From positions 1,056,001 to 1,120,000 of the forward strand of contig CAVYTU010000015.1 in assembly GCA_963771465.1 (NCBI GenBank): DNA of 64,000 nt. Direction: 5' to 3'. A model generated the notes under the pieces. It was not told where the DNA came from. It saw nothing but the letters and a program-made list of their open reading frames with translations, and ran no database searches. Below, in pieces: positions 16,965 through 62,561 of this stretch. Every line of letters begins with the position of its first letter. Positions within the stretch are counted from its first letter, which is position 1. This DNA is from an uncultured delta proteobacterium (GTDB lineage Bacteria > Desulfobacterota > Binatia > UBA9968). The position numbers and the translations under genes are program-made.

Positions 16965-17377
16965 CGTAAGTTTCCGTAGTTACACAAGAAGAAAGGCTAC
17001 AATCACTAATAATCACAAATGCTCCGGAGAATCAACCAGCACTGGAAGCGTCAATCGCTGCAAAAAGTTTGCAATCCGCTGATTTTTGCCGAGAGTCGAT
17101 ACCCGGTCCTTCTTCCGGGTATCTGCGCGAGCAGCGCGATATTTCTTTTCGAGACTGTCTAGTACTGGACAGCAAGCCCTACCGAGTCAGCGTAGCCTAA
17201 GCGATCTTTGTCGGTCTCGGTCGATGGGATGTAGTGGTTCATTCTCCTGGGGACGCGCCACAGGCAAGCGAACAGTTTCACAGAGACATGACCTTATTAA
17301 CAACGCGGCATGATGCCGCACAACCATACGAGTCAACCGCTTGGCGGTTCGCCTCGGTGAAGGAAAGGAGCACGGTT

Positions 17378-28740: not shown

Positions 28741-31700
28741 CTAGTGCTTCTCAAGCCAATTTCGAATCAACGCGCCGACCGTCTCGGTATGATCCCGAAT
28801 AAACGAATCGTGGTTGCCGGTGCCGCGGTAGATCTGGATTCCTCCGCTAACATACTTGCCCCATCCCAGAGTGTTATCCTGTTTACGACTCGACATCTCA
28901 TCGGCAACCAACGAGAACACTGTGCCCCGATACTGCCGCGGACGATAACGCAAGAGAGCTTTGAGGTGGCTAGACTGATTATCGCGCAGCTCGCGCATGG
29001 ATGGCAGCTGTTGAGCGCCAGCCGCTGTCTTGGCGGACTTCAGATCGAATACTTCTTTCAACGTTTCCGACCGGTGCGTGACATAATTTATTCCCTCCCT
29101 CCATTCTAAACTCCGTAGCTTTTCGAAGTGGTATCGAAATCTCTCCCGATAATAGTACTGCCAGTTCGGTATCAGCTTCTCGATCACTCGCCAAGCGCGA
29201 TATCGATAGTAGCGCACCCTCGTGGGTCGAACCGTATCGAGGAATCCCAATAATCCCACCTCCTCCTCTTGATCTTGGAGTTGGCACGCTACCTCGTAAG
29301 CCACTACTCCTCCCAAACAATGTCCAAGCAAACAATACGGTCCTTCGGGCTGTATAGACTTGATCTCCTTAATAAAGTCCTTGGCCATCGCTTCAACACT
29401 TTCGTGGCCGCGCTCAGATCCTCGGGAACTCCGGGCTCTTAATCCATAAAATGGATATTCAACCCCCACAAAGTGGGCTATCTGCGCCAACGCCAACGCC
29501 TCGTTTTCACCGCCAAATCCACCTGGGAAGACAAAAACCGGAGATTTGCCATCCCCACCCTTTAACTTAAAAAGGTACGACCAGTTGCGCTCGCCGACCT
29601 TGTCCTGCGCGTTCCATTTCTCATCTCTGGCGTGTAAGTATTCCGCAACACCCGCAATCGTCGGAGATTCGAAGAAACTTCGTAGCGGCACTTCGCACTC
29701 AAATTCTTTTGCCATCAACGAAAGCAGTCGAATAGCCAGTAACGAGTGCCCTCCCGCAACGAAAAAATTATCATTCACTCCCACTTTCTCTACCTTGAGA
29801 ACTTCGGCCCATATCTGCGCCAACCGCTGTTCCGTAACACTTCGAGGCGCCAAATAAACTTCCTCGGACTCACGCCGGCTTTTCTCCGGCACTGGTAATG
29901 TTGAATGGTCTATTTTGCCATTGGCTGTCAGCGGCAGCTTATCAAGGAATACGAATGCGGAGGGCACCATATAGTCCGGTAGTTTCTCTTTGAGATATCC
30001 GCGTAGCTCGCTGGCTGTCAGACCACCTGACAATTTGCCGGCGACATATCCCACCAATTGCTTGTCTTTGAGGCTGTCTTCCTGGACGGTTACAACCGCT
30101 TCTCGTATCGCTGGATGTTCACCGAGCACGGTCTCGATCTCGCCTAACTCAATCCGATAACCACGTATCTTCACCTGGTTGTCGATGCGGCCCAAAAACT
30201 CGATGTTGCCGTCCGGCAAATACCGCGCCCGATCTCCGGTCTTGTAAAGGCGGCTTGTGGGGTCAACATTAAATGGGTTGGCGATAAACTTCTCAGCGGT
30301 CAACTCAGGACGATTAAGATATCCCCGTGCCAATCCGTCTCCGCCGATATGAAGCTCTCCCCCCACACCGATGGGGACGGGCTTTAGATGTGCATCGAGA
30401 ATATATACCTGGGTGTTGCCGATTGGCCTGCCGATGGGAATTGAAGATAAGTGGTGATCCCGTTGGCGCGGTATGGGATAGCAGCACGTAAACGTCGTGC
30501 TTTCGGTCGGCCCGTAGCCGTTGATAATCTTCGTGTTAGGTAACTCGGCGAGACCTTTTCTCACATGTGGCATCGAAAGCGCTTCGCCGCCGATCAGTAG
30601 CTGCTTTACCTCTGACAAGGCCTGCGGCTCTTCGTTGACCACTGTGTTAAACAAGGCTGTCGTCAACCATAATGTGGTGACTTGATGTTTCTTGAGAACT
30701 GCTCCTAGTTCACTCGGAGCAGGCACTTTCCCAGGAAGGATTACACATTTGGCTCCGTGCAGCAGTGCGCCCCACACCTCGAAAGTCGCAGCATCGAAAG
30801 AAATCGGCGCCAAATGAAGAAAAGTCTGCTCTCCGTCGAGTTCCACGTAGTCAACTCCAAACAATAAGCGCACGACGCCTCGATGGCGCACTTCCACTCC
30901 TTTGGGTTTACCGGTAGAGCCAGAGGTGTAAATCACATAGGCCAAGTTGTCGGCTGTGCTTTCGCTGTCTGGATTATCTCGCGGCTCTTTGGCTATCTCT
31001 TTCCACTCGCGATCAAGATAAATCACGCGGGCACTTGTTGGCGGCAGGCTCTTTAACGAAACCCTATCGGTCAACACTATGCCGACATGTGTGTCCTCTA
31101 ACATGAACCTCAAACGCTCTTTGGGATAACTCGCATCCAAGGGCACGTAGGCGCCACCGGCTTTGAGTATGCCGAGAATACCGATCACTAATTCAAGTGA
31201 CCGCTCCATGCAGAGCCCAACAAGAACATCCGGTCCAACCCCCAACTTCCGCAAATAGTGCGCTAGCTGATTGGCTTTGCTGTTCAGCTCTCTGTAGCTT
31301 ACTCGCCGATCCTCAAACACCAGCGCAACCGCGTCGGGCGTACGCTCTGTTTGCTCCTGAAATAGTTGGTGCACGCAGTCCCCTGGATAATGCCGCTGGG
31401 TATCGTTCCATTCGACTAACAACTGCTGCTTCTCGACCGAATTCAACAACGGAATGTCCAAGAGCTTTTGATCCGGGTCTGCCACAATCCCTTCCAGCAG
31501 TGTCAGGAAATGTCCTGCCATACGGCTGATTGTTGCCGCGTCAAAGAGCTCCGTGCGATACTCGATGCGCAAACTCATCTCCCGTTCGCGGTCGATAAAT
31601 GCCGCGAAGATATCGAATTTGGCAGTGAAAAAATCAATCTCCACAGGAGTCACTGTGAGTCCAGGGATCTCTAAGTTCGATCGCGGAACATTTTGCACCG

Positions 31701-32892
31701 CGAAGGCAACTTGGAATAACGGCGTCTGGCTCTGATTACGCCCAGGATTGAGTTCCTCAACGAGTTTTTCAAAGGGTAAGTCTTGGTGCTCATAAGCTTG
31801 CAACGCGGTTTCGCGCACGCACTCCAACAGTCCCCTAAACGTGGGATTGCCGGACAGTTTCGTCCTCAACACCATCATGTTCACGAAAAATCCGATCAAA
31901 CCTTCCGTTTCTGGACGCGTCCGGCCAGCAATCGGTGAGCCGACCACGACATCATCCTGCCCTGTGTAGCGATGCAGCAAGATCTGGAACGCCGCAAGTA
32001 ACGTCATGAACAAAGTTGCGCCTTCCCGATTGCCCAATAGCCTCACCTCATCGACGAGAGTTTTGGACAATGTGAAGAATTGTTTAGCGCCGCGATTACT
32101 CGATAATGAACTCCGTGGCCGGTCCGTTGGCAGTTCGAGAACCGGAAGATTTTGCAATTGCGCTGACCAGTAGCGAAGCTGCTTTTCCAATTCTTCGCCT
32201 TGCAGCCGTCCTCGCTGCCACACGGCGTAGTCGGCGTACTGAATTGGCAATTCGGGGAGCGGGCTTGGCAGACCCTGAACAAACGAGTTGTAAAGCGCAG
32301 TCAGCTCGCGCAAAAAAACCCCGCCTGACCATCCGTCGGAAGCGATATGATGCTGCACTTCGACTAGAACATGGGAATGGAGACTCAATCGGACCAGCAT
32401 TACGCGTAGCGGCAGGTCCCTGCTAAGATCGAATGGCCTTTCTCTGAGCTCAGCAGCGATTCGCTGCACTTCATCGTGCCGTCGACTTTCAATAACGTCA
32501 CTGATGTCGAAGACGAGCAAGTCAACATTCTCGACTGTGCCGATCCGTTGCACGGGTTCTCCACCCTCGATCAGACTGTAGGTGGTACGCAGCACCTCAT
32601 GCCTATCGATGATGGCATGGACTGCACTGCGCAGCGCATCAATATCAAGCGGTCCGTCCAAACGAAGCGCCGATCTCTCGTTATAAGCACAACTTTCAGG
32701 ATCCAATTGGTTGAGAAACCACAATCGCTGCTGCGCGAACGATAGTGGTGCTGAGTCTCCACGAGCTCGACGCGGGATGGTCAAGTTCTCACCTCGACTG
32801 CCACGGCCTTGCTGTAATTTGAGCTCAAGGAGCGCTCGCTTCGCCGGCGAAAGACCCGCAAGACGCTCTGTCAACTTGTCGGTTTCCATCAT
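28741..32892 (-). CDS. NRPS termination module C-A-T-TE (A code read as DAFWLGGTFK, Val-like; TE with Cys nucleophile)
   Basis: N-terminal LAGLSPAKRALLELKL; C motif HHIASDGWS; A motifs YTSGSTGKPKG, SFDAATF, YGPTE; T motif GGHSL; TE motif GHCLGG. Confidence 0.93.
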   Translation of the reverse strand: MMETDKLTERLAGLSPAKRALLELKLQQGRGSRGENLTIPRRARGDSAPLSFAQQRLWFLNQLDPESCAYNERSALRLDGPLDIDALRSAVHAIIDRHEVLRTTYSLIEGGEPVQRIGTVENVDLLVFDISDVIESRRHDEVQRIAAELRERPFDLSRDLPLRVMLVRLSLHSHVLVEVQHHIASDGWSGGVFLRELTALYNSFVQGLPSPLPELPIQYADYAVWQRGRLQGEELEKQLRYWSAQLQNLPVLELPTDRPRSSLSSNRGAKQFFTLSKTLVDEVRLLGNREGATLFMTLLAAFQILLHRYTGQDDVVVGSPIAGRTRPETEGLIGFFVNMMVLRTKLSGNPTFRGLLECVRETALQAYEHQDLPFEKLVEELNPGRNQSQTPLFQVAFAVQNVPRSNLEIPGLTVTPVEIDFFTAKFDIFAAFIDREREMSLRIEYRTELFDAATISRMAGHFLTLLEGIVADPDQKLLDIPLLNSVEKQQLLVEWNDTQRHYPGDCVHQLFQEQTERTPDAVALVFEDRRVSYRELNSKANQLAHYLRKLGVGPDVLVGLCMERSLELVIGILGILKAGGAYVPLDASYPKERLRFMLEDTHVGIVLTDRVSLKSLPPTSARVIYLDREWKEIAKEPRDNPDSESTADNLAYVIYTSGSTGKPKGVEVRHRGVVRLLFGVDYVELDGEQTFLHLAPISFDAATFEVWGALLHGAKCVILPGKVPAPSELGAVLKKHQVTTLWLTTALFNTVVNEEPQALSEVKQLLIGGEALSMPHVRKGLAELPNTKIINGYGPTESTTFTCCYPIPRQRDHHLSSIPIGRPIGNTQVYILDAHLKPVPIGVGGELHIGGDGLARGYLNRPELTAEKFIANPFNVDPTSRLYKTGDRARYLPDGNIEFLGRIDNQVKIRGYRIELGEIETVLGEHPAIREAVVTVQEDSLKDKQLVGYVAGKLSGGLTASELRGYLKEKLPDYMVPSAFVFLDKLPLTANGKIDHSTLPVPEKSRRESEEVYLAPRSVTEQRLAQIWAEVLKVEKVGVNDNFFVAGGHSLLAIRLLSLMAKEFECEVPLRSFFESPTIAGVAEYLHARDEKWNAQDKVGERNWSYLFKLKGGDGKSPVFVFPGGFGGENEALALAQIAHFVGVEYPFYGLRARSSRGSERGHESVEAMAKDFIKEIKSIQPEGPYCLLGHCLGGVVAYEVACQLQDQEEEVGLLGFLDTVRPTRVRYYRYRAWRVIEKLIPNWQYYYRERFRYHFEKLRSLEWREGINYVTHRSETLKEVFDLKSAKTAAGAQQLPSMRELRDNQSSHLKALLRYRPRQYRGTVFSLVADEMSSRKQDNTLGWGKYVSGGIQIYRGTGNHDSFIRDHTETVGALIRNWLEKH

Positions 32893-35800
32893 TGCTCCGT
32901 CTTCGTTAGCCGGTCTTTGTAGCCTTGCTCAGCATCGTCATTAGACATCGATTCTAGCTCCTCCAGAATTCGTTCCATTTCCGTTTCATTCATTTGTCCA
33001 GTCTGCTGCCGGGTTATGACCGTCGCTAAATCTCCTACCGTCGGCGCTTCGAACAGGCTGCGCAATGGAATATCCAATTTGAGAATAGCTCGCATTCGTG
33101 ACACCACCTGCGTAGCAAGTAACGAATGCCCGCCCAACTCAAAAAAGTTGTCGTCCATCCCAACCCTATCCACGCGCAATACTTCCGCCCATATCTCCGC
33201 TATCTTTTCTTCCACCGGCGTTCGCGGCGCAATAAATTCACTGCGTTGAACTGATCCCGGCGCCGGCAATAATCCGCGGTCTACTTTGCCACTCGGAGTT
33301 AACGGCAATTCATCCAACCGCACTAGGGCGGAAGGAATCATATACTCGGGAAGTCTTTGCTTGAGATATTTCCTCACATCCGAAGCGTCGAACGACTGTT
33401 CCCGCCGCGCTACCAAATAAGCCACGAGCCGCTTGTCCCCAGAATGGTCCTCCCGAACCATTGCAATTGCTTCTCGTATCGCCAGATGTTGAGCGAGCGT
33501 CGTCTCGATCTCGCCCAACTCAACCCGATAACCGCGTATCTTTATCTGATGATCTATTCGTCCCAAAAACTCGATGTTCCCATCCGCTAGGTAACGAGCG
33601 TGATCGCCGGTCCGGTACAAGCGCCTGGGCGGCTCCCCGCCCAAGGAGTGATAGATGAATTTCTCCGCCGTCAGCTCGGGCTGGTTTAAGTAACCTCGCG
33701 CCAAACCGTCTCCGCCGATGTGGATCTCACCAACTACACCGATTGGAACCGGTGCTAAATATTGATCGAGAATGTAGATTTGCGTATTCGCAATCGGCCG
33801 GCCTATCGGCACCCAACCTGGTGAATCATTTTCACGACATTCGTAATAGGTTGCGTCAATCGCGGCTTCCGTCGGACCGTACAGATTGATTAACGGCACG
33901 TTTAGCTGCCGACGAAACCGAGTGTTCAGCTCCGCCGATAAAGGCTCGCCACCGCAAAAAACACGGCGCAAACTGCCACACTTCGCCATGTTTTCCTGCA
34001 GCATCATTTTGAGCAATGTGGGCCCTACTTGTAGAATAGTAATTCGTTCGTTCAGCAAAAACTTGGCCAGATATTCAGCGTCCCTATAGCCTTCGGGCCT
34101 CGCCAACACCAATTGTGCGCCGGAGATCAATGGAGCGAAAAACTCCCACACCGAGGCATCAAAACTGAGCGGCGTTCTCTGTGCCACACGATCATCCTGA
34201 GCCAGTGGAAACGCTTCGAGCATCCACATCATGTGATTACAGATCGAGCTATGGGGTATCGCTACCCCCTTCGGGTTTCCAGTTGAACCCGAGGTGTAGA
34301 TCACGTAGGCGATATTGCCATTGTCGGCTTCGCTGGGAAGGTTCGCCGTGCTTTCGCCAGCGACTTTTTGCCATTCCTGGTCTAGGTAAACCGTCTGTCC
34401 GTCATACTTCGGCAGTCGTCGCGACAGCGCTTGGAAGGTCAATAGCACCGCGACCCCGCTATCGTTCAACATGTATCCCAGTCGTGCTTCTGGATAGGTT
34501 GGATCCAACGGCAGGTAGGCTCCACCACTCTTGAGCACTCCCAACAAAGCGATGACCATCTCAAGGGATCGCTCTAGGCACATGCCCACCACAATGTCTG
34601 GTCCAACGCCGAGCTTGCGTAGGTAACGCCCCAGTTGGTTGGCGCGATCGTTCAGTTCTCGGTATGTGAACTGCTGGTCTTCAAAAACAATAGCCACGGC
34701 TCCAGGCGTTCGCTCGACCTGCTCTTCAAACAATTGATGAATACATTTGTTCGAAGGATAATCCCGCTTGGTGTCGTTCCACTCCTCCAAAAGCTGATGC
34801 TTCTCCGGTTCGGTGAGCAACGGTAAGTCACTTATCCGCTGGTTCGGATTGGTCACTATCCCTTCAAGCAAGGTTTGAAAATGGCCAAGCATGCGACACA
34901 CCGTGGTTGAATCAAAAAGCTCCGTGGAGTATTCAAGCTGCCCCTCGAACCCTTCCGTGGTTTCAGTCAAAGCCAAAGTGAGATCAATTTTCGCAGCGCT
35001 TTGGTGAATATTTATCGGGCTAACCACTAACTCCGGCACCGTAAAATCATTTCTAGGATAATTCTGTAATGCGAACATTACTTGAAACAATGGTGACACG
35101 CTCAGAATGCGCTCCGGCCGAAGTTCCTCCACCAGTTTTTCAAACGGCAAGTCCTGATGTGCATAGCTCTGCAGCGCTGTCCGCTTTACCTTGGACAGTA
35201 ACTCGCGAACAGTTGGTTTGCCGGAGAGATCGCTGCGCAATACCAGCGTATTCGCGAAAAATCCAATCAAACCTTCCAATTCCACGTAATTTCGGTTAGC
35301 TATCGGTGATCCAATACAAATGTCCTCCTGGCCACTGTAGCGAGACAGCAATGTTTGAAAAGCCGCTAACAATGTCATGAACAGCGTGACGCCCTCATTG
35401 CGACTCAATCGCTTAATTCCTTGGGTTAGCTCCCTGGAAAGCTTAAATGCGCGTCGGGCTCCTCGATAACTTCGTATTGCGGGCCTAGGCCGATCCGTGG
35501 GTAGCTGTAGCGTGGGCAGATCTTGGAGCTGTTTTTTCCAGTAATCTAACTGGCTCGCTACAATCGTTCCGCTCAACCATTCGCGCTGCCATGCGGCGTA
35601 GTCAGCGTACTGAATCGGTAATTCAGGAAGTGAAACTGATTTTCTTTCCAAAAATGCTTTGTAGAAAACCGCCAACTCGCGCCACAAGATGCCGGAGGAC
35701 CAGCCGTCCGATGCAACGTGGTGCATGACGACGACGAGAACATGGTGATTCAATTCTAAACGCAGTAACCCGGCGCGCAGCATTTGATCTCGCCTCAGAT

Positions 35801-36221
35801 CGAATAGACGCTCCGTCAAATCAGCGATCATTCGCTGCACTCGCCCGTCTCGTTCGCTCTGGGGGCATGCAGATAGGTCGATGATGGCAAGTTCAACAGC
35901 TTGCGGCGGGCCAATCTGCTGAATCGGATTACGGCCTTCGTCCACGATATAGGTTGTTCTTAATACTTCGTGCCGCTCAACGATTGCATCCAGGGCACTC
36001 CTCAGCGCACCCACATCTAATGTTCCATCGAGGCGAAGCGCCCTCGCCATATTGTACGCGCAATTTTCTGGCTCCAGTTGATTTAAGAACCACAGTCGCT
36101 CCTGCGCGAACGATAACGGAACGAACTGTCGATCTGTTTTCCTCGGAATGAATTGTTTCTGCATAAAGTCTCGCCCCGCAACGGTTTCCCTATTCGGTCG
36201 GATAAGCGGCAAAGGGATCAA
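32889..36221 (-). CDS. NRPS module C-A-T (A code read as DAWQFGLIDK, Gln-like); likely start ATG 36164
   Basis: HHVASDGWS; SFDASVWEFF; NLYGPTEAAID; GGHSL; C-terminal EMERILEELESMSNDDA tail. Confidence 0.93.
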   Translation of the reverse strand: MIPLPLIRPNRETVAGRDFMQKQFIPRKTDRQFVPLSFAQERLWFLNQLEPENCAYNMARALRLDGTLDVGALRSALDAIVERHEVLRTTYIVDEGRNPIQQIGPPQAVELAIIDLSACPQSERDGRVQRMIADLTERLFDLRRDQMLRAGLLRLELNHHVLVVVMHHVASDGWSSGILWRELAVFYKAFLERKSVSLPELPIQYADYAAWQREWLSGTIVASQLDYWKKQLQDLPTLQLPTDRPRPAIRSYRGARRAFKLSRELTQGIKRLSRNEGVTLFMTLLAAFQTLLSRYSGQEDICIGSPIANRNYVELEGLIGFFANTLVLRSDLSGKPTVRELLSKVKRTALQSYAHQDLPFEKLVEELRPERILSVSPLFQVMFALQNYPRNDFTVPELVVSPINIHQSAAKIDLTLALTETTEGFEGQLEYSTELFDSTTVCRMLGHFQTLLEGIVTNPNQRISDLPLLTEPEKHQLLEEWNDTKRDYPSNKCIHQLFEEQVERTPGAVAIVFEDQQFTYRELNDRANQLGRYLRKLGVGPDIVVGMCLERSLEMVIALLGVLKSGGAYLPLDPTYPEARLGYMLNDSGVAVLLTFQALSRRLPKYDGQTVYLDQEWQKVAGESTANLPSEADNGNIAYVIYTSGSTGNPKGVAIPHSSICNHMMWMLEAFPLAQDDRVAQRTPLSFDASVWEFFAPLISGAQLVLARPEGYRDAEYLAKFLLNERITILQVGPTLLKMMLQENMAKCGSLRRVFCGGEPLSAELNTRFRRQLNVPLINLYGPTEAAIDATYYECRENDSPGWVPIGRPIANTQIYILDQYLAPVPIGVVGEIHIGGDGLARGYLNQPELTAEKFIYHSLGGEPPRRLYRTGDHARYLADGNIEFLGRIDHQIKIRGYRVELGEIETTLAQHLAIREAIAMVREDHSGDKRLVAYLVARREQSFDASDVRKYLKQRLPEYMIPSALVRLDELPLTPSGKVDRGLLPAPGSVQRSEFIAPRTPVEEKIAEIWAEVLRVDRVGMDDNFFELGGHSLLATQVVSRMRAILKLDIPLRSLFEAPTVGDLATVITRQQTGQMNETEMERILEELESMSNDDAEQGYKDRLTKTEQ

Positions 36222-39701: not shown

Positions 39702-39804
39702 ATTTTTTCGAACTCAGGACCAACCGTAGCCGGTTGCTTGTTTGAAACCTCCGGCACAAGAAAAATCGATTGACGTCGGCAACAGATTTCTCATGGTGAT
39801 GCCT

Positions 39805-40070
39805 CTAACTAACCGTTTCCTTGGCGACCGACTGTTCCGCGTGTTTCTCTGCCATCGCCTCGACCTCGCGGAGCATTGCACTAGTTCTGGCCCAGACTTT
39901 CCATGGTCCGGCAAGACGTCTCGATCCAGTTTGCCAGGCGCAACAGGTCTGCTGGTCTTGAAAACTCCTAGCATTGTAGCAATGGCATCAGCCTCGTGAT
40001 CGACCAACGCAGCGACTGGTTCCTTCTTCGCTCCACTCCGGCAGAATTTTAAACGTAACTTGGTTGACAT
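39805..40070 (-). pseudogene. internally collapsed relic of an A-T didomain paralog
   Basis: Contains KKEPVAALVDHEADAIATMLGVFK (compare EPIALLFDHDIEVVCAILGVLK in 44047..46035), PGKLDRDVLPD (A10-like) and, after a frameshift, MLREVEAMAEKHAEQSVA (shared tail, 39876-39805). Confidence 0.7.
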
Positions 40071-44039: not shown

Positions 44040-44046
44040 CTGGCGT

Positions 44047-46035: not shown

Positions 46036-46048
46036 CTCTGTTGCGTCA

Positions 46049-53378: not shown

Positions 53379-55371
53379 GCCCATTCTCCTTGGGGCTTCT
53401 TGCGCTTTCTTCAGCAAGCCACGCCTGCACTTCTGCTTCCGTGATGGATTCCGCTTCGCACAGCAATTGCGCTAAGCCGTCGTTGGTACGCTTCGTTTGG
53501 TTGCGCGTGATAATAGCCGCCATCTCTGCCACGGTCGGAGTCTCGAAGAGGGCTTTGACAGGCAGTTCCAGGTTGAACGTTTGAATAACCCGAGAGATCA
53601 CCCGCGAAGCTGCCAGTGAATGACCGCCTAGATCGAAGAAATTGTCATGGACACCGATGGGACATATTTCCAAGACTTCTTGCCAGATCCCAACGAGTTG
53701 TAGTTCGGTTGCCGAGGTCGGCTCCATGTAGCCAACCTCCAGATTGGGACGAAGGGTCGCCGGGCTCGGCAGTCGCCGGCGATCAACTTTTCCATTGGGT
53801 GTCAGGGGAATTACGTCAAGTTGAACAAACCCAGAGGGAATCATATGGTCTGGCAATCTGTCCTTTAGAAACCATCGTAAAGTTTCAACCGTAGGCCCCG
53901 GTAACAGAGCCGACACAAAGTAGCTGACGAGTTTTTCACAACCGGCTTTATCGGTGGTGCCTATGACAACGGCATCCTTTACGCCGGAATGGCTTAACAA
54001 CGTACGTTCGATCAGTTCAGGTTCAATGCGATAGCCGCGGATTTTTAGCTGAAAGTCTTTTCGGCCTAACAAGATCAATCCACACTCCGGTGTCATGCGA
54101 CCCAGATCACCGGTTAGATAGAGTCGCTCGCTGCCGCCATTCGGATCAGAACGAAATCTTTCTTTGCTAAGCTCAGGTTGATTCCAGTAACCCTGAGCCA
54201 GAAAGCGAGTCTTAAGCGCAATCTCGCCAGTCTCGCCGACCGCAACCTCTTGACCGCTTTCGTCCAACAGCAGCAGCTGTTTGCCTTCAGGCGCCCAGCC
54301 CAGAGGTATCGGACCCACGCCCATCGCTGTTGTTTGATCCATCAGTCGCCAACTAATGGTTTGCGTCTCCGTGGCACCTATTCGATGCAAAAAAATACTG
54401 TCGCGAGAAAAATATTTTCGGTAATTCTCCACGTCGTTTTGGTTCACTGGAGCGCCCGACAGGTGGACTAAGCGCACCGACGGAAATTGAAAATCGTCCG
54501 ACAGAGGTTCGATCATCCGACGAAACACCGTCGGAATGGAATGCCAGACGGTGATCTCCTCTCGCCCTAGCCAGTTGGCTAACCCAAACGATCCGTACCC
54601 GGCCACGTCAAAAGGAAATAACGTAGCGCCAGTCAGCAATGACCCGAAAAGGTGAAGCTCGGCCGCCCGAAAGCTCAAAGAGTGAAGTAACGTGAGCCGA
54701 TCGTATCGACTCAAATGAATCTGGTTAACGAAACAGCGAATTTCGTGGAGAACGTTTACTTGATTTTCAGCAACTCCCTTAAAGTTGCCAGTCGATCCTG
54801 AAGTATGCAGGACATAGGCGAGACTGTCAGCCGTAATGGTTATCCCCGGATTTTCATCGAACTCTGACCTTTCGCCGTCCCCCATGACTAGCACTTGGCA
54901 GTCTTGTCCAAACAGCCCGACAAGACTTTGGATGTTTGCTCGGTCCGTGACGATGACTTCCGTGCCGCAATCCTGAATCACAAACTCATTTCTTGCTTTT
55001 GGATAGGCTGTGTCTAAAGGTAAGAAGAACTTGCCGGCTTTGAGGATCCCAAGAAGTGCGATAATCATTGCCGCCTGATCCAGCAAATAAATCCCTATAG
55101 GCTCTGGACGGTTGCCGCGTTGGGCCAGAAGTAGGTGAGCGACCTGATTGGCAGCTTTGTTCAGCTCGTCGTAGGTCAGCGATCGATGTATCGTCTTCAC
55201 TGCTAATCGATCCGGGTAACTCCGCACGATCCTTTCAAACCGTGCCGGGATCGATGTTTCGACATCTTCGATGGGAAACTCGACGAACGTCCCTGACGGA
55301 TGAAAACATTTTTCCCGAATCACCTTCTGCTGCAGTGGAGGTGTGAAGGCATTTTTTAGAGAATCACTCAT
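53371..55371 (-). CDS. stand-alone A-T didomain (paralog 2)
   Basis: PPLQQKVIREKCFHPSGTFVEFP; HTSGSTGNFKG; IGATET; GGHSL; LAQLLCEAESITEAEV. Confidence 0.9.
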   Translation of the reverse strand: MSDSLKNAFTPPLQQKVIREKCFHPSGTFVEFPIEDVETSIPARFERIVRSYPDRLAVKTIHRSLTYDELNKAANQVAHLLLAQRGNRPEPIGIYLLDQAAMIIALLGILKAGKFFLPLDTAYPKARNEFVIQDCGTEVIVTDRANIQSLVGLFGQDCQVLVMGDGERSEFDENPGITITADSLAYVLHTSGSTGNFKGVAENQVNVLHEIRCFVNQIHLSRYDRLTLLHSLSFRAAELHLFGSLLTGATLFPFDVAGYGSFGLANWLGREEITVWHSIPTVFRRMIEPLSDDFQFPSVRLVHLSGAPVNQNDVENYRKYFSRDSIFLHRIGATETQTISWRLMDQTTAMGVGPIPLGWAPEGKQLLLLDESGQEVAVGETGEIALKTRFLAQGYWNQPELSKERFRSDPNGGSERLYLTGDLGRMTPECGLILLGRKDFQLKIRGYRIEPELIERTLLSHSGVKDAVVIGTTDKAGCEKLVSYFVSALLPGPTVETLRWFLKDRLPDHMIPSGFVQLDVIPLTPNGKVDRRRLPSPATLRPNLEVGYMEPTSATELQLVGIWQEVLEICPIGVHDNFFDLGGHSLAASRVISRVIQTFNLELPVKALFETPTVAEMAAIITRNQTKRTNDGLAQLLCEAESITEAEVQAWLAEESARSPKENGHE

Positions 55372-55372
55372 G

Positions 55373-57364
55373 TTATTTATTGCTCATGCTTTTCGGACTT
55401 CCTGCAGGAAGCTGTTTCTGCGCTTCTAGCTCCGTCATAGCCTCCAACTCGCGCAGGATCTGCGCGAGCTCTTCGTCGCTCGCAGGCCTCGCTTGATTCT
55501 GCTTGATGATGGCCGCCATCCCGGCTACGGTCGGCGAATCGAAGAGTGCCCTCAAAGGCAGATCAAGCTGGAATGCTTTAATGACCCGGGAAATGACACT
55601 CGATGCCACCAACGAATGGCCACCGAGTTCGAAGAAGTTGTCGTGGATACCAACCTTTTCCAGTGATAACGCCTGAGCCCAAATTTGCACCAGCTGTCGC
55701 TCAGCGTCACTGCGCGGTGCAACGTACCCCACATCCAATTCCGGCCGAACTCTTGCAACATCGGGCAACCCGGCACGATCAATCTTTCCGTTCGGGGTTA
55801 GCGGGAACTCATCCAACCTGACAAACGCCGAGGGAACCATGTAATCGGGGAGTAATCTGCTCAAAAATTCCCGCAGCTCGCTTGTGGTCGGAGCTCGCTG
55901 TGCTGCTGAGATGATATACCCGATCAGTCGAGTCTCCGACGATCCATTGTCCCGTCCAACCACCACAGCGTCTCGGATTGCTGCATGGCGACGCAGAGTA
56001 TTTTCAACCTCCCCTATCTCGACGGCGTAACCGCGGATCTTGACGCGAAAATCATTGCGCCCCTTATGGACTAGACAACCGTCAGCGAGCATCAGCCCGA
56101 AATCGCCAGTATAGTACAACCGCTCATCGGACCCCTGTGGATCGGCTTTGAATTTTGCTTCGGTAAGGTCGGGCCGACGCCAATACCCGGGCGAGAGGTA
56201 CCGGCTGCGCACTACGATTTCGCCGACTTCGTTGACCCCAACCGCTTTGCCCTTGTCGTCAAGTAACAGAATGGTTTTCCCCTCAACTGCGTAACCTACC
56301 GGCAGTTCGTTTCCGGGAAACGGTACGTCTGCATCGATGAACAATGCGCAAAGCGGGCCCGTTTCAGTGGATGACAGTCCGTTGACCAGAGTACAGCTCC
56401 GCGAAAATTGCTTGCGAAATAATTCTACGTCACTCGTGTAGGCAGGTTCGCTTCTTAACCGCAGGAAACGAAGGTCGGGAAAGGCCCACGTATCGTCGAG
56501 ATTTTGGCACAGGCTTCGGAAGAGCGTCGAGCTAATTAGACAAACTGATATTTTTTCTTCTACCAGCCAGTAGGCGAGGCGTCGTACTCCTTGTTTATTC
56601 ACGTCGAAAGGACAAAGGGTCGCGCCGGTAAGCAGTGAATTGAAAATATTGGTGATCGCATTTGAAGTATTAGCTGGTAATAGCGCCATTCGATCGTGCT
56701 CACCAACACCGTTTTCGCATGTGTGTAAGCGAACGCGGTGCTGTAAGTTGCGGTGCGTTTGAATCACTGCTTTGGGCCGACCTGTGGATCCAGACGTGTA
56801 AACCAAATATGCGTATTCACTGGGCGGTATCGCCAGGCAAAGGTTTTGAGCGTTATGCTCATTGGCGATCGAATCGAACGCAACGCACTGGGGGGTAACG
56901 CTCCATCGTGGCTGCGTCGCCACGCCTTCGGTTTTATCGGAAATCACCAACCGCGCTCCGGAATCCTCTAATATTGTATTGATTCGCGATTGTGGAAATG
57001 AGGGATCTAACAAGACAAAGAACCCGCCAGCCTTTAGGACCCCGAGCAGGGCCGCGGTTTGTTCAATGCCTTTTTCTAGGAAAATTCCAACAGGCACCGC
57101 CTCCGCTAATCGCTTGGATTGGACGGAGTGGGCAACTCGATTGGCCAAGTCATTGAGCTCTGCGTAAGTAATCGAACGATCATCGGCCTTGACCGCAACT
57201 CGATTGGGATAAAGCTGTACGACCTTCTCAAACCGCTCCGGAATTGATTGCTCAACTTCGTCGATCGGAATGCCAACGCACCGATCCGCAAGATGGCAAA
57301 GGTCATCCCCGCGTTCTTGCTTTTCCGGCAGCAGTCCGACGTTCTGTTTTAGAGAATCACTCAT
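55373..57364 (-). CDS. stand-alone A-T didomain (paralog 1)
   Basis: YTSGSTGRPKA; LSSTETG; TPNGKIDR; GGHSL; ELAQILRELEAMTELEAQKQL. Start at ATG 57364 overlapping the upstream stop. Confidence 0.9.
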   Translation of the reverse strand: MSDSLKQNVGLLPEKQERGDDLCHLADRCVGIPIDEVEQSIPERFEKVVQLYPNRVAVKADDRSITYAELNDLANRVAHSVQSKRLAEAVPVGIFLEKGIEQTAALLGVLKAGGFFVLLDPSFPQSRINTILEDSGARLVISDKTEGVATQPRWSVTPQCVAFDSIANEHNAQNLCLAIPPSEYAYLVYTSGSTGRPKAVIQTHRNLQHRVRLHTCENGVGEHDRMALLPANTSNAITNIFNSLLTGATLCPFDVNKQGVRRLAYWLVEEKISVCLISSTLFRSLCQNLDDTWAFPDLRFLRLRSEPAYTSDVELFRKQFSRSCTLVNGLSSTETGPLCALFIDADVPFPGNELPVGYAVEGKTILLLDDKGKAVGVNEVGEIVVRSRYLSPGYWRRPDLTEAKFKADPQGSDERLYYTGDFGLMLADGCLVHKGRNDFRVKIRGYAVEIGEVENTLRRHAAIRDAVVVGRDNGSSETRLIGYIISAAQRAPTTSELREFLSRLLPDYMVPSAFVRLDEFPLTPNGKIDRAGLPDVARVRPELDVGYVAPRSDAERQLVQIWAQALSLEKVGIHDNFFELGGHSLVASSVISRVIKAFQLDLPLRALFDSPTVAGMAAIIKQNQARPASDEELAQILRELEAMTELEAQKQLPAGSPKSMSNK

Positions 57365-60300
57365 GGCGATCCTCGCCTGCAGGTCGCGCGCGTTCTCCAG
57401 CAAGCCGCGTATGCACTTCTGCTTCCGTCATCAATTCCGCCTCGCCCAGCAGGTGCGCTAACTCGGCCTCGCTTACCTGCTTCCATTGGGTCTGCGTGAT
57501 GATAACGGCCATCTCGGCTACCGTCGGCGATTCGAACATGTGACGTAGCGGCAGGTCATCAATGGAAAAAGCACTGCGTATTCGCGACATGATTTGGGTA
57601 GCAAGTAACGAATGTCCTCCCAGATCGAAGAAGTTGTCGTAGATGCCGACCTTGTCGAGATTGAGCACTTTGCCCCATATAGCGACGAGCGTTTCCTCGA
57701 TCGGTGTGCGCGCTGGCTGGTAAACATTCGCCAATTGTAGTCCGTTTTGATCTGGCGCCGGTAGCGCTCGGCGGTCTACTTTGCCGCTCGGTGTCAATGG
57801 AAATTCATCCAACGGCACCAGAGCGGCGGGAATCATGTACTCAGGTAGTTTGTGCTTGAGATACTGTCTCACTTCAGAAGCGTCGAAGGACTCTTTCGCA
57901 CGCGCTACCACATAACCCACGAGCCGCTTGTCTCCGGGCGCATCTTCTCGCACCACCACCACCGAACTCTGAACCATTGGGTGTTGACCGAGCACGGCCT
58001 CGATTTCCCCAAGCTCGATACGGTAGCCGCGCACCTTGACCTGGTTATCCACGCGACCAATGAACTCGATGTTGCCATCCGGCAAGTAACGAGCGAGATC
58101 ACCGGTCTTGTACAAACGCCGGGCCGGTTCTCCGTTGAAGGAATGATAGATGAACTTCTCGGCCGTCACCTCCGGCCGGTTCAGATATCCTCGAGCCACT
58201 CCGTCACCGCCAACGTAGATCTCTCCGACGACACCAATAGGCACTGGATTGCGGTGAGCATCAAGTATGAATATCTGCGTATGCGCAATAGGTCGGCCAA
58301 TGGTTTGCGGGCCATCAACGGTCCGGCAGGTCCATGTCGAATAAGTTGTGCATTCGCTGGGCCCGTAAAGATCGTGGACTTTGCGCACCGACGTCGACTC
58401 ATAAATTCGCCGCACCAACTCGGGTCGTAATAGTTCTCCGGCAAGATTGATCACGCGTACCGTCGAAGGTATCGCTTCCAGTCTGAGCAGCTCATTTATC
58501 GCCGATGGCACGGTGTTTAACAGACTCACCTTCGATTTATTTCGGATTGTCGTTAAAGCAAGAGCATTCTCCGCCATAATGATCGTCCCACCGCAGGTCA
58601 ACGGAGCAAAAATCTCGAAGATGGATAGGTCGAAACAGATCGACGTAGAGGCCAGAACCCCGGACAGCTCTTCTTGAGTAAAGGCGGAGCGTACCCAGGA
58701 CAAAAACGCCACCGTGTTGCGGTGTCCAATGGCAACTCCCTTGGGTTGACCCGTCGATCCGGAGGTGTAAATCACATAAGCAAGATTGTCTGGCGTGATA
58801 GAACTTCCAGGATTGGCGTCGCTTTCTTTGGCGATCAACTGCCAAGCGCTGTCCAGGCATACCCGGCGCAAGTGTGGAACTAGAATAGATCGACGAGCGG
58901 TATCGTCTAGGCTCACCTCTCGATCTTCAAATGATTTTCCTCGCGTTAGCAGAAGCGCTGCCTGCGCATCGGCCAGCATGAACTCCAGACGCTCCGCGGG
59001 ATAGCTTAGATCGAGCGGTACATAAGCTCCGCCGGCTTTGAGTACACCCAATACCGCGACGATCATTTCTATCGACCGGTCAATGCAGATACCGACCAGC
59101 ACTTCGGGACCAACATTCCGTTTACGTAAGTAATGAGCGAGTTGGTTGGCGCGTCTATTCAGTTCGCGATAGGTTATCCGCTGATTTTCAAAAATCACGG
59201 CTAAGGCGTCCGGAGCACGCACCACCTGTTCTTCAAAGACTTCGTGGATGCATTTGTCCTTGGAATCCGCTCGCTTTGTGTCATTCCATTCGACTAGCAG
59301 TTGGTCGCGTTCTGGGTCGGTGAGGATGGAGAGGTCAGCGATAGGGCACTGGGGGTTTTCAACGATGCTTTTCAGAAGGGTTTGAAAATGGCCGGCCATC
59401 CGTTCGATCGTGGACGCATCGAACATGTCCGTACTATAAGCGATAAAGCCATGCAGACCGTTTTCTCTTTCCTCGAGGAACAATTCGATATCGAACCTCG
59501 TCGTGCCCGAATCGAGCTCCAGCTCCTGCACTTCCAAACCGATCAACGCAAGCGGACATGCACTTGAGTTTCTCAGCGTAAACGACACTTGGAACAGCGG
59601 GTTCTGGTTTATGTCGCGGCTGATCTGGAGCTCTTGGACCAATCTTTCAAAGGGCAAATCTTGGTGCGCATACGCCTCTAAGCATCGCTGCCGAACTCGC
59701 GCGAGCAGATCGGCAAACTTTGGATTGCCGGACAGATCGGAACGGAGGGTTAGCAAATTCAGAAAAAATCCGATCGTATGATCCAAGGCGCCATCTTGGC
59801 GAACGGCCATGGGAACACCGATACAAAAATCGTCTTGACCGCTGTAACGGGATAGTAGCGTTTGATAGGCCGCGAGCAACGCCATGAATAGCGTGACGTC
59901 GGCATCTCGGCTGATCTCTTTCAACGATTGGGTTACTGTTGGCGCAAGCGTGAACCATTGCCGTGCTCCTTTACCGTCACGCACTCGGAGGCGCGGGCGG
60001 TCCATCGGCAACCGTAGGTCCGCAATGCCGGCCAGCCGACCGCGCCAATACGCAAGCTGGAAATTGAGAGTTTCCGTCTGTAGCGAATGGCGCTGCCAGA
60101 CCGCAAAATCGGCATACTGAATCGGCACGGATTCAAACTGGAGAGGCTGCTTGTTCACCAGCAACTCGTAAGCGATGGCTAGTTCGCGGCCTAGAATATC
60201 CATCGACCAGCCGTCAAAAATTAGATGATGGACCACGAGGATAAGCACAGATCGTTCGCTACTAAATCTAACCAATTTCACCCGCAACAAGGGGCCCTGG

Positions 60301-62561
60301 CTCAGATCGAAAGCTTGCTGGGCTTGGCTAGCGCAAAAACGAGAAATTGAGCCTGCCCAATTGGTGTCAGCTATAGATGATGACATATCTACGATCGGGA
60401 CATCGATCGTTAGAGCGGCCAAAATTTCTTGATGCGGCTTTCCGTCCGTGGACCGAAAAACCGTGCGCAACGATTCATGACGTTTGATGATTTCATTAAA
60501 CGCGCATTCCAATGCCGCTGTGTCTATGCGGCCATTGACCGCAAATGCAGCGACCAGATTATGCCTGCATGCTTCCGGCTCGAGCTGCTCGAGAAACCAC
60601 AAGCGTTCCTGCCCGAAGGAGAGTGGGAGAGGAAGCGCTCGATTACTCGATGCCAGCAACGGCGCTCGTCTAATAGCATGGGCCAGCGAATATCGTGGAA
60701 CAAAGTCTGCCAAAGCGTTTATAGTCGGCGCATTGAAAAACTCGCTCAACGGGATCTCGCTCTCTAGAACTTCATTGATCCGCACGACAACGCGCATGGC
60801 GGACAACGAATCACCGCCGAGGTCGAAGAAGTTATCATGAGCACCGATACCCCCGACTCCCAATACCTTGCCCCAAATTTCAGCCAGCCGCTGCTGCAAC
60901 GACGATTCGGGCGCGACGAATCGCGTGCCGAGCCCCGGCCGCGTGCGATCCGGCGCAGGAAGCGCTCTACGGTCGACTTTGCCGTTAGCGGTAAGTGGCA
61001 ACGACTCCAGTTGTATGAAAACCGCTGGAATCATATATTCAGGAAGCCTGCTCTTCAGAAAGTTCCGCCACTCATTGCTACTGGGCGCGATATTTTCAGT
61101 GGCAACGAAGTACGCGATCAGCCGGTTCTCATCAGAGGGTTCGTGTTTTCGCGCAACCACAACCACATCGAGGATCCCTGGGAATGGCCGTAACGCGGAT
61201 TCAACTTCCGCGACTTCGACCCCATAACCGCGAATCTTGGCACGATAATCTTTGCGGCCTTTATGAATCAGGCATCCATCGGAAAGCAGGAGACCGAGAT
61301 CCCGGGTGCGGTAGAGTCGCTTCGTTCCACCCAAAGGATCGGGCTCGAAGCGCTCGTCCGTGAGATCTGCGCGGTTCCAATAACCCGGCGACAGGTAGGA
61401 GCTGCGCACGACGATTTCCCCAACTTGATTGACGCCGACACTCTTGCCCGTGTCGTCCAGCAACAGGATGTCTTTACCAGGAACCGGGTAACCGATCGGA
61501 ATCTCGTCGCTATCGATCATACTGTCATGATCCATGAGATAGCTGCTGAGCAAGCAGGTTTCAGCAGGACTGACACCGTTGCCTAATAGACAGCTTGCTG
61601 GAAAAAATTGCCGATACAGTTCGAAATCCGTTTTGCATGCAGCCTCACTCGATATGCGCAATAAGCGCAGGTCGGAAAACCGCTCGCGGCCCATCAGGCT
61701 CGCCGCAAGACTTCGAAACAGCGGCGCGCTCAACGAACAGACCGAGACTTTCTTTTGAATTAACCAGGTGATCAGAGCCTCGATCCCATGGCGCTTCACA
61801 TCAAAGGGCAAGACTACCGCGCCAACTAGAAGCGCAAGGAATGGATGGAGCACGGCCGCCGCAGTTCCGGACGTAAGGTAACTCAACCGATCTCGGTCGC
61901 CGTGATGAAATTCATTGGTGAAAAGCATGACCTGGTGCAGCATATTACGATGCGTCCAGATCACTCCTTTGGGCTCTCCGGTAGAGCCGGAAGTATAAGA
62001 AATAGAAGCCAGCGATTCGGGAGATACGAGCAACCTGGGATTGTCCGCTGCGTAAAACCGATCCGTCGTTGCAAGATCCAGCAGTCGGCAAAGTCCGTCA
62101 GCAAGCTCTCGTCCCAACAAACCAGTCTGCTGCTCAACTAGTACGCACCGGGCACGTGCATCGGCGATGATGTTGCGGGAACGAGTCTTGGGGATAGCCG
62201 GATCGAGCAATACGAAGAATTTCTCCGCCTTCATAGCCGCCAGCATTGCAACGATCAAAGCTGGCTTGCTTTCGAACAGTAGCGCTACCGGTTCCGAACC
62301 GCGGCCGAAGCGTTCGATAATCGAGCGCGCCGCGCGATTGGCGCGCGCGTTCAACTCCCAATAGGTCAATGATTGCGAGTTGGTAACAATGGCCCAGTTG
62401 TCTGGATATTGGCTAACGACTTTCTCAAACCGCGCTGGGATCGATGTCTCAACATCTTCGATGGGAAACTCGACAAACGTTCCCGACGGATGAAAACACT
62501 TATCCCGGATCGCCTGTTGTTCCGGCGGAAGTTTGAAACCGTGATTGAGAGAGTCGTTCAT
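57357..62561 (-). CDS. NRPS A-T-C-A-T (A1 of the same atypical family as the didomains; A2 code read as DLFNNALTYK, Ala-like)
   Basis: N-terminal LPPEQQAIRDKCFHPSGTFVEFP; T1 GGDSL; C motif HHLIFDGWS; A2 CFDLSIFE and YGPSE; T2 GGHSL; tail ELAHLLGEAELMTEAEV. Confidence 0.93.
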   Translation of the reverse strand: MNDSLNHGFKLPPEQQAIRDKCFHPSGTFVEFPIEDVETSIPARFEKVVSQYPDNWAIVTNSQSLTYWELNARANRAARSIIERFGRGSEPVALLFESKPALIVAMLAAMKAEKFFVLLDPAIPKTRSRNIIADARARCVLVEQQTGLLGRELADGLCRLLDLATTDRFYAADNPRLLVSPESLASISYTSGSTGEPKGVIWTHRNMLHQVMLFTNEFHHGDRDRLSYLTSGTAAAVLHPFLALLVGAVVLPFDVKRHGIEALITWLIQKKVSVCSLSAPLFRSLAASLMGRERFSDLRLLRISSEAACKTDFELYRQFFPASCLLGNGVSPAETCLLSSYLMDHDSMIDSDEIPIGYPVPGKDILLLDDTGKSVGVNQVGEIVVRSSYLSPGYWNRADLTDERFEPDPLGGTKRLYRTRDLGLLLSDGCLIHKGRKDYRAKIRGYGVEVAEVESALRPFPGILDVVVVARKHEPSDENRLIAYFVATENIAPSSNEWRNFLKSRLPEYMIPAVFIQLESLPLTANGKVDRRALPAPDRTRPGLGTRFVAPESSLQQRLAEIWGKVLGVGGIGAHDNFFDLGGDSLSAMRVVVRINEVLESEIPLSEFFNAPTINALADFVPRYSLAHAIRRAPLLASSNRALPLPLSFGQERLWFLEQLEPEACRHNLVAAFAVNGRIDTAALECAFNEIIKRHESLRTVFRSTDGKPHQEILAALTIDVPIVDMSSSIADTNWAGSISRFCASQAQQAFDLSQGPLLRVKLVRFSSERSVLILVVHHLIFDGWSMDILGRELAIAYELLVNKQPLQFESVPIQYADFAVWQRHSLQTETLNFQLAYWRGRLAGIADLRLPMDRPRLRVRDGKGARQWFTLAPTVTQSLKEISRDADVTLFMALLAAYQTLLSRYSGQDDFCIGVPMAVRQDGALDHTIGFFLNLLTLRSDLSGNPKFADLLARVRQRCLEAYAHQDLPFERLVQELQISRDINQNPLFQVSFTLRNSSACPLALIGLEVQELELDSGTTRFDIELFLEERENGLHGFIAYSTDMFDASTIERMAGHFQTLLKSIVENPQCPIADLSILTDPERDQLLVEWNDTKRADSKDKCIHEVFEEQVVRAPDALAVIFENQRITYRELNRRANQLAHYLRKRNVGPEVLVGICIDRSIEMIVAVLGVLKAGGAYVPLDLSYPAERLEFMLADAQAALLLTRGKSFEDREVSLDDTARRSILVPHLRRVCLDSAWQLIAKESDANPGSSITPDNLAYVIYTSGSTGQPKGVAIGHRNTVAFLSWVRSAFTQEELSGVLASTSICFDLSIFEIFAPLTCGGTIIMAENALALTTIRNKSKVSLLNTVPSAINELLRLEAIPSTVRVINLAGELLRPELVRRIYESTSVRKVHDLYGPSECTTYSTWTCRTVDGPQTIGRPIAHTQIFILDAHRNPVPIGVVGEIYVGGDGVARGYLNRPEVTAEKFIYHSFNGEPARRLYKTGDLARYLPDGNIEFIGRVDNQVKVRGYRIELGEIEAVLGQHPMVQSSVVVVREDAPGDKRLVGYVVARAKESFDASEVRQYLKHKLPEYMIPAALVPLDEFPLTPSGKVDRRALPAPDQNGLQLANVYQPARTPIEETLVAIWGKVLNLDKVGIYDNFFDLGGHSLLATQIMSRIRSAFSIDDLPLRHMFESPTVAEMAVIITQTQWKQVSEAELAHLLGEAELMTEAEVHTRLAGERARPAGEDRHE

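Follow-up and report, generated by a model that had tools for sequence, protein, structure and literature searches.

We analyzed a nonribosomal peptide synthetase (NRPS) gene cluster in a 64,000-nucleotide stretch of DNA from an uncultured bacterium of the Binatia. This stretch, the window, corresponds to positions 1056001-1120000 of contig C15 in the source genome (G000), which comprises 6.9 Mb in 19 contigs. Below, other G numbers stand for relatives, L numbers for fetched loci, and numbered Cs for contigs. The NRPS block spans window positions 28741-62561 and, according to the list of open reading frames (ORFs), consists of 13 codirectional ORFs on the minus strand, g01 to g13 in transcription order. 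Pfam detected 13 adenylation (A; AMP-binding) domains, 13 carrier (T; PP-binding) domains, four condensation (C; Condensation) domains, one thioesterase (TE; Thioesterase), and one thiamine pyrophosphate (TPP) enzyme. In a motif scan, the carrier serine in GG(H/D)S(L/I) was kept in all 13 T domains and HHxxxDG in all four C domains. The inventory, the domain order, and the intact motifs proposed in an earlier note on this DNA were thus borne out.

The first gene, g01 (57357..62561), encodes a protein of 1734 amino acids (aa) with the order A-T-C-A-T, classified by Pfam, motifs, A-domain code, and a tree of C domains. It is followed by four genes for free A-T didomains, g02 (55373..57364; 663 aa from an internal ATG, nearest relative in G015), g03 (53371..55371; 666 aa), g04 (51387..53378; 663 aa), and g05 (49411..51381; 656 aa), then by the C-A-T gene g06 (46049..49414; 1121 aa) and by three further free didomains, g07 (44047..46029; 660 aa), g08 (42048..44033; 661 aa), and g09 (40070..42055; 661 aa). 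All seven didomains were identified by Pfam, and their A domains were characterized by the Asp235 column and a tree of A domains, both described below. Next come g10 (37821..39701; 626 aa), in which an oxalate--CoA-ligase-like A domain (A' in the following) is fused to a T domain, and g11 (36190..37824; 544 aa), the TPP enzyme; both were compared with Pfam, NCBIfam, and the PDB. The block closes with g12 (32889..36164), a C-A-T gene, and g13 (28741..32892), which encodes C-A-T-TE. These two and g06 were assigned by Pfam and the C-domain tree.

Four ORFs were first listed with a TTG start, downstream of which lies a conserved start reading Met-(Asn/Ser)-Asp, and g12 has an alternative TTG start at 36221. 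With the internal ATG starts, neighboring genes overlap by up to 8 nt or are separated by up to 25 nt, in line with the earlier statement that most junctions overlap or nearly touch. The sole exception is the 368-nt interval between g09 and g10 (39702..40069). This interval holds the relic of an internally deleted A domain; a relic had been suspected here before. Its ORF translation and tblastn revealed a piece of the A2 region matching residues 92-127 of g08 (E = 2.7e-6) and an A10-like piece (E = 0.036). The matches are weak, yet they suggest that the relic is real.

The earlier note had also raised hidden C-like domains in the A-T didomains. Pfam found none at E ≤ 0.01 (a single subthreshold DUF occurred in g10 only), and at 656-666 aa the seven free didomains have no space for one. 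A free C domain or another condensing enzyme was not found by Pfam in the cluster flanks either. The claim that the cluster contains no tailoring enzymes did not hold, as it overlooks the TPP enzyme g11.

Adenylation domains lacking Asp235

Eight A domains of the window, the first one of g01 and those of the seven free didomains, form a distinct clade, termed Astar here (the relic is also of this type). They share 38-57% identity with each other, 29-39% with the four canonical A domains of the cluster, and 23-26% with g10. All eight comprise AMP-binding plus AMP-binding_C in Pfam and have the motifs A3, A5, A7, A8, and A10 (A7 reads YRTRD in g01 and A5 reads GPNEA in g09). Scores of 310 and 295 bits were obtained with TIGR01733, the cutoff of which is 317 bits, and the closest solved relative in a PDB search was LgrA. 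By sequence, we assign the Astar domains to the amino-acid A-domain family. Their relatives in the ESM Atlas carry generic AMP-binding/NRPS names only.

In NRPS A domains, Asp235 (GrsA numbering) is the anchor of the alpha-amino group. This residue is absent from all eight Astar domains, where the column reads A, S, R, S, gap/A, A, G, and gap/A, and is present in the four canonical A domains of the cluster. An Asp-less, Astar-like A domain with Asn at position 235 was also seen in a stand-alone A-T-TE protein of a Chloroflexi metagenome-assembled genome (L003, 9944-12607). The A-T-TE architecture is known from enzymes that dimerize aryl-pyruvates, and by analogy it is possible that the Astar substrates are 2-oxo acids.

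The position of A domains relative to C domains was surveyed for 218 A domains from the whole source genome and all fetched loci, which stem from relatives and soil metagenomes. The best match was Astar for 145 of them, and 73 were canonical. Asp235 was missing in 138 of the 145 Astar-type domains, of which 124 were N-terminal, seven followed a T domain in the same protein, six had other positions (e.g., behind a PaaK-like domain), and one followed a C domain. Hence, no upstream C domain was present in 137 of 138 cases. Five of the seven Asp-bearing Astar sisters were placed behind a C domain, and Asp was kept in 68 of the 73 canonical domains, 54 of which were located behind C. Asp-bearing relatives from Calothrix and Acidobacteria likewise sit behind C domains. 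Since 80 of the loci were fished by the N-terminal motif of Astar, the rows are related by kinship, and the window is counted twice (also as L104), we treat the association as a strong pattern and not as a statistic: within one lineage, loss of the anchor appears to go with not being an acceptor module. Astar domains within elongation modules were considered as well, but most apparent cases belonged to the Asp-bearing sister clade.

Astar-T is demonstrably the first module in many proteins. We found 21 C domains fused behind Astar-T, which is the undisputed first module in the numerous proteins of the type Astar-T-C-A-T. In another type of protein (L099:2738-6064 in G006; L185, L186, and L188 in G014; L192 in G018), with a length of approximately 1100-1200 aa, an N-terminal domain of approximately 470-540 aa precedes an Asp-less Astar-T. 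By eye, this domain looks like an adenylating enzyme of the phenylacetate-CoA-ligase/F390-synthetase type, which would give two adenylating domains per carrier.

The earlier description of the didomains as seven tandem paralogs leaves out the head of g01 and does not fit their age. Synonymous third positions among the eight Astar genes are saturated (0.25-0.35 identity), with higher identity over codons 1 to 45 (0.52-0.65) and at the 3' tail (0.50). Together with the 38-57% protein identity, this argues against recent tandem duplication. In the tree built from 117 Astar domains, the eight window units were scattered over separate, well-supported subclades, each being closer to units of other loci; g05 belongs to a subfamily with a shortened A4 loop and g09 to its sister subfamily. 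The subfamilies are combined in varying order and number across arrays. Thus, the eight Astar units represent old, separately conserved subfamilies with orthologues elsewhere. For orthologue pairs, the ratio of nonsynonymous to synonymous substitution rates (dN/dS) was 0.17-0.29 in the 5 of 10 pairs with unsaturated dS (g05, 0.17-0.19; g08, 0.29; g09, 0.25), and the cassettes are thus under purifying selection.

A different picture was obtained at the gene ends. Over 300 nt at their 3' ends, g06 (46212-46511) and g01 (57559-57858) are 91% identical, far above the rest of both genes. This suggests that gene conversion has recently occurred between the T regions of the two proteins, both of which end in C-A-T. 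Overall, the gene junctions are homogenized or constrained at the DNA level, while the gene bodies are old.

Of the 24 other genus genomes (including G005), 19 contained the N-terminal motif of Astar; none of 16 genomes belonging to two further families of the order did. When 1.84 billion representatives were searched with a profile of this motif, 1166 clusters at 50% identity were retrieved (E ≤ 1e-10), mostly with the motif at the N terminus of proteins of approximately 650-660 residues. Furthermore, DNA nearly identical to the array was detected in soil and rhizosphere runs from 16 studies. The system is therefore not peculiar to the window, being common in soil metagenomes and in the genus. 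An early scan of genome contigs by generic A-domain patterns had yielded mostly canonical A domains and was useful only for L001-L005 and L063.

The source genome harbors seven further Astar-T copies outside the cluster. Several are solitary among unrelated genes, and most have the C-terminal tail described below. No common partner enzyme was found beside the solitary genes, the neighbors of which encode an ABC transporter, an acetyl-CoA-synthetase-like protein, Ldh_2, an aldo-keto reductase, DNA ligase, and CsgG. In addition, an ORF at C17:936195-937121 starts like the PolA 5'-3' exonuclease and ends in an Astar-type T domain with an acidic tail, a stray cassette fragment far from NRPS genes. 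One relative genome contained approximately 40 Astar-like matches.

In the 80 motif-fished metagenome loci, T was followed by Astar 50 times (46 in the next gene and 4 fused) and by C 27 times. Arrays of three to five Astar-T genes were observed in L113, L116, L117, L129, and L131. In the compact locus L129, a phosphopantetheinyl transferase gene is followed by four Astar-T genes, one of which is broken in two by a frameshift, and by only one C-A-T-TE gene. L149, with A'-T, TPP, C-A-T, Astar-T, and C-A-T-TE, corresponds to the tail of the window cluster with an extra Astar-T between the orthologues of g12 and g13. In seven loci, Astar-T directly follows the TE gene, indicating that gene order is loose. 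Fused Astar-T-Astar-T-C-A-T proteins were seen in three genus genomes and three metagenome loci. In G004, the syntenic site (L088; G004:C9:1240000-1259999), bordered by Amidohydro_2 on one side and RadA-bioF-bioA on the other, contains two tandem Astar-T genes, a GST gene, and an SRAP gene but no C domain; the cluster was either expanded in the source genome or reduced in G004.

Contigs from metatranscriptomic libraries that matched the array at ≥99% covered 28 of 30 bins in run X4, 15 in X19, and 4 in X20, which, given possible DNA carry-over, is a hint only. The nearly empty g10 bins in the RNA runs are no evidence of silence.

Condensation domains, putative docking elements, and the proposed oxalate branch

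In a tree of 57 C domains, the C domain of g01 fell into a 16-member clade (Shimodaira-Hasegawa-like approximate likelihood ratio test [SH-aLRT], 98), in which 14 members are fused behind Astar-T. The C domains of g06, g12, and g13 belong to a 17-member clade (SH-aLRT, 99). Directly upstream of the members of this second clade we found Astar-T, in cis or in trans, 13 times, a TPP gene twice, A'-T once, and a canonical module once (for g13 only). C domains that follow canonical A-T modules formed a separate clade. The best solved relatives of the four C domains were Txo1/2, TycC6, and FscG PCP-C, which we take to be LCL type; SrfA-C and TycB1, presumably DCL type, scored much lower. We also considered that Astar might load D-amino acids and dropped this idea, because the C domains behind Astar match the presumed LCL-type structures far better than the presumed DCL-type ones.

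The A-domain codes are DLFNNALT-K for the second A domain of g01, DVWHFSLIDK for g06, DAWQFGLIDK for g12, and DAFWLGGTFK for g13, which we take to specify Ala, Ser, Gln, and Val, respectively. The TE of g13 (region 28741-29560; Pfam Thioesterase, 2e-22) has the nucleophile motif GHCLGG, with Cys instead of the Ser of GxSxG. Cys-type TEs are associated with strained-ring release (beta-lactone or beta-lactam).

One type of acidic C-terminal tail is present on every T-ending protein of the cluster except g10, on the Astar-T and C-A-T proteins alike. An N-terminal helix of the type LSPAKR..LELKLQ is present on g06 and g13 but not on g12, and elsewhere it was found on C-first proteins placed after Astar-T in trans. 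An N-terminal stretch of approximately 45 residues is common to all Astar domains and corresponds in alignments to the ordinary C-A linker. At fused T-Astar joints the acidic tail is gone, and in five of six joints most of the N-terminal motif is gone too, G012 retaining its core. A complex prediction for the g05 T domain plus tail with the 75 N-terminal residues of Astar gave a score of 0.00; it was run without controls and counts neither for nor against an interaction. A second docking class, with an N-terminal "APKGAL..." region and acidic "...EEFEL"-like C termini, was seen between canonical modules in the source genome (C8:227286-238840) and in L086, L191, and L193, and is distinct from the tail and helix found with Astar-T.

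The label oxalate-ligase-like for g10 was supported by its closest PDB relatives, the oxalate--CoA ligase 5ie0 (406 bits, 2e-120) and 8aff and 6qjz (approximately 400 bits), the next class scoring 266 bits. In NCBIfam, g10 remained below the FadD7 equivalog cutoff (NF004511, 425 versus 650 bits). The fused T domain argues that its own carrier, and not CoA, is the acceptor. The g11 protein has the three TPP-enzyme domains N, M, and C and falls into the oxalyl-CoA decarboxylase/2-hydroxyacyl-CoA lyase-synthase group. Its best PDB match was 8vzc (335 bits), with 8vzc, 8vzf, and 6xn8 at 320-335 bits and acetolactate synthase at 191 bits. It is under all curated NCBIfam cutoffs (342 versus 557; 283 versus 600), and the match stops near residue 540 of 544, the solved enzymes extending 14-25 residues beyond. 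The pair of A'-T and TPP genes recurs in L099 (G006) and in three metagenome loci (L111, L149, and L173). A g10-like A-T was found in 11 of 31 genomes of the genus (a count that includes G005), usually as the first module in the form A'-T-C-A-T.

These matches suggest that g10 loads oxalate onto its own carrier. The bound oxalate would be used as such or passed through g11, which might convert the tethered oxalyl thioester by decarboxylation into a formyl thioester or, by addition to an aldehyde, into a 2-hydroxyacyl thioester. Enzymes of this group reportedly add to an aldehyde, giving a 2-hydroxyacyl product, on CoA esters. Together, g10 and g11 would supply a formyl or 2-hydroxyacyl starter, and this unit would start the Gln module g12 via the helix-less C domain of g12. 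The closest sequence relatives of the two adjacent genes form the pair known from oxalate catabolism (an oxalate--CoA ligase of the AAE3/Pcs60/FadD7 type and oxalyl-CoA decarboxylase or 2-hydroxyacyl-CoA lyase/synthase). In contrast to that pair, the ligase g10 carries a fused T domain and lies within an NRPS operon, so that the thioester would be on phosphopantetheine and not on CoA. Under any model of the cluster, an enzyme of the oxalyl-CoA-decarboxylase/2-hydroxyacyl-CoA-lyase type working on a carrier-bound oxalyl thioester would be new, and g10 and g11 point to possible carrier-tethered oxalyl/formyl C1 chemistry.

A proposed library of chain starters and its alternatives

We favor, with a probability of roughly 50%, the reading that the Astar-T proteins are interchangeable non-amino-acid chain starters, which feed C domains in trans via their shared C-terminal tail, so that a family of short peptides with N-terminal caps, completed at the Val-TE module, is produced. 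Each Astar-T, including the head of g01, would adenylate a carboxylic acid without a free alpha-amino group and load it onto its own carrier. Such loaders, being unable to accept a chain, could only start one. They would dock many-to-few, with the acidic tail on the LSPAKR-type helix of g06 or g13. Since the same tail is shared by the T-ending proteins and a matching helix is present on g06 and g13, many donors may dock on the same few C domains. The Ala, Ser, Gln, and Val modules would build short peptides that differ in their N-terminal cap; the caps would be joined to Val, Ser-Val, Ala-Ser-Val, and so on, and all peptides would be released by the single Cys-type TE of g13. A starter library was the first of two models in the earlier note. 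It is favored by the missing anchor, the lack of an upstream C domain in 137 of 138 cases, the common tail, the C-domain clade, and locus L129, whereas the substrates, the docking, and the products are what we infer from sequence.

Several observations weigh against this reading. The pocket strings of Astar match no specificity code that we know of. The four C domains look LCL type, unlike dedicated starter C domains, and the docking of the tail on the helix of C proteins is a pairing deduced from sequence. The association between the missing Asp and the missing C domain would be equally expected if Astar-T were C-independent elongation modules. There is one true exception to it, an Asp-less Astar inside an elongation module (A'-T-C-Astar-T-C-A-T; L095, G014), and this unit, at least, may accept a chain. 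Fused Astar-T-Astar-T-C proteins are unusual for mere alternatives. Finally, the synonymous conservation of the first 45 Astar codons may mean a second docking element for head-to-tail assembly and not gene conversion.

An unlikely alternative is a colinear line in which only the g01 loader is used, giving cap-Ala-Ser-Gln-Val, and the seven free Astar-T proteins serve other NRPS lines or form a reservoir kept by recombination. This would explain the solitary Astar-T genes with the same tail among unrelated genes of the source genome, the approximately 40 matches in one relative, and the syntenic site in G004, where two Astar-T genes occur without any C domain. Relics and copies with stop codons exist, and the homogenized junctions are also in line with recombination. 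However, the seven free genes lie in one tightly packed, operon-like block with C-A-T genes, their catalytic motifs are kept as in g01 (8 of 8 Astar domains), and orthologues are under purifying selection. Moreover, the C domains of g06, g12, and g13 fall into the clade fed by Astar-T and not into that of canonical modules, and arrays next to a single C-A-T-TE gene recur.

We consider it improbable that, as in the second model of the earlier note, the Astar-T proteins dock head to tail and assemble their monomers into one chain of up to 13 units, with the C domains reused in trans or Astar domains acting as amide synthetases. Such a serial assembly would suit the interleaving of Astar-T blocks with C-A-T genes, the overlapping junctions, and the N-terminal 45 residues of Astar, which are far more conserved than the remainder. 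The joint loss of the tail and most of the N-terminal motif upon T-Astar fusion is what is expected for a matched docking pair, the fused double loaders of three genus genomes and three metagenome loci fit as well, and one C-Astar-T module exists. A-domain-catalyzed amide formation has a precedent in streptothricin biosynthesis. On the other hand, the cluster and its flanks encode no catalyst for the seven to eight extra condensations, and the monomers would lack the alpha-amino anchor, just as an upstream C domain is lacking in all but one of the Asp-less units. The heads and tails are near-identical between units, and being too alike, they could not set an order. The number and order of cassettes differ between otherwise related clusters, and in L129 four loaders face one C domain. 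A related proposal, that the Astar lineage lost the anchor and the upstream C domain together and that its members are C-independent elongation modules, joined head to tail by an undescribed mechanism to a 13-unit product, we hold to be slightly less probable still. That the extra didomains are functionless, decaying duplicates is very improbable: one relic is present in the window and frameshifted or stop-bearing copies occur in relatives and in L129, but all eight Astar domains are intact with all core motifs, dN/dS is 0.17-0.29, the old subfamilies are conserved across genomes, and, as weak evidence open to DNA carry-over, contigs from one RNA library cover 28 of 30 array bins.

The chain-starter reading has partial parallels in known systems. 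In the anabaenopeptin synthetase of Anabaena, a single assembly line is served by several alternative initiation modules, and the congeners vary in their first residue; those modules are two complete multidomain starters that activate amino acids, whereas here eight anchor-less A-T units are located between C-A-T genes, with others genome-wide. The vatiamide pathway shows combinatorial, non-colinear use of near-identical docking ends, but its branching is on the acceptor side, one upstream module of a polyketide synthase-NRPS hybrid being used with several parallel downstream modules, in contrast to the donor-side multiplicity seen here. The rhabdopeptide/xenortide NRPSs resemble the present system in that separate proteins with degenerate docking yield families of products from a small number of genes; they use complete C-A-T modules iteratively, while most of the separate proteins described here are without C. 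Finally, textbook siderophore aryl-acid loaders (EntE/EntB; MxcE/F to MxcG) place a non-amino acid on a free carrier, which passes it in trans to a C domain, and their A domain is without Asp235. They differ in having one loader per pathway, separate A and carrier proteins, and an A domain of another clade, Astar being in the amino-acid A-domain family. In none of these nearest known systems are many Asp-less A-T cassettes, derived from the amino-acid A-domain family, found together with such a small number of C domains.

In line with the earlier suspicion of an undescribed system, we found no description of Astar-T loader arrays in the literature on Binatia/Binatota NRPSs, A-T didomains, alternative starters, and oxalyl-CoA decarboxylase in NRPSs, supplementary tables of biosynthetic gene clusters (BGCs) apart. 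By these literature searches, as opposed to a MIBiG-type comparison, no characterized cluster of this kind was found. Two NRPS clusters were reported in Binatota, with their architecture undescribed in the part of the article that was available (PMC8692599). In the available part of another article, oxalyl-CoA decarboxylase in an NRPS/BGC context appears in the reference list only (PMC11730586).

If the chain-starter reading is true, these uncultured soil bacteria have a natural means of building combinatorial libraries of capped peptides, and the simple, portable part behind it is a 660-residue A-T protein with standard ends, of the kind sought by NRPS engineers. If serial assembly is true instead, it would amount to a novel mode of peptide-bond formation. 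In addition, the Astar family is a clean natural experiment on the loss of Asp235.

Flanking genes and minor observations

According to Pfam, the flanks of the cluster hold RadA, bioF/bioA/bioD, LarC, a peptidase, an MFS_3 transporter, and an amidohydrolase. The named relatives of this RadA, at 77-89% identity, come from metagenome-assembled genomes labeled Candidatus Binatia (five), Deltaproteobacteria (three), Methylomirabilota (one), and Zixibacteria (one), so that RadA points to a probable placement in Binatia. The MFS_3 (EntS-like) transporter gene (22289..23551, plus strand) encodes a possible exporter with a weak tie to the cluster; a second MFS_3 gene adjoins a solitary Astar-T gene elsewhere in the source genome.

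In contigs from the rhizosphere DNA run X1, position 44112 is joined to 49505, with 22 extra letters and short sides, skipping approximately 5.4 kb (g06 and most of g07). These joints may reflect a copy-number variant of a related strain or a repeat artifact and were not used as evidence. Finally, Pfam identified an OmpA-family protein with a collagen triple-helix repeat region at window positions 17234-18058 on the plus strand.

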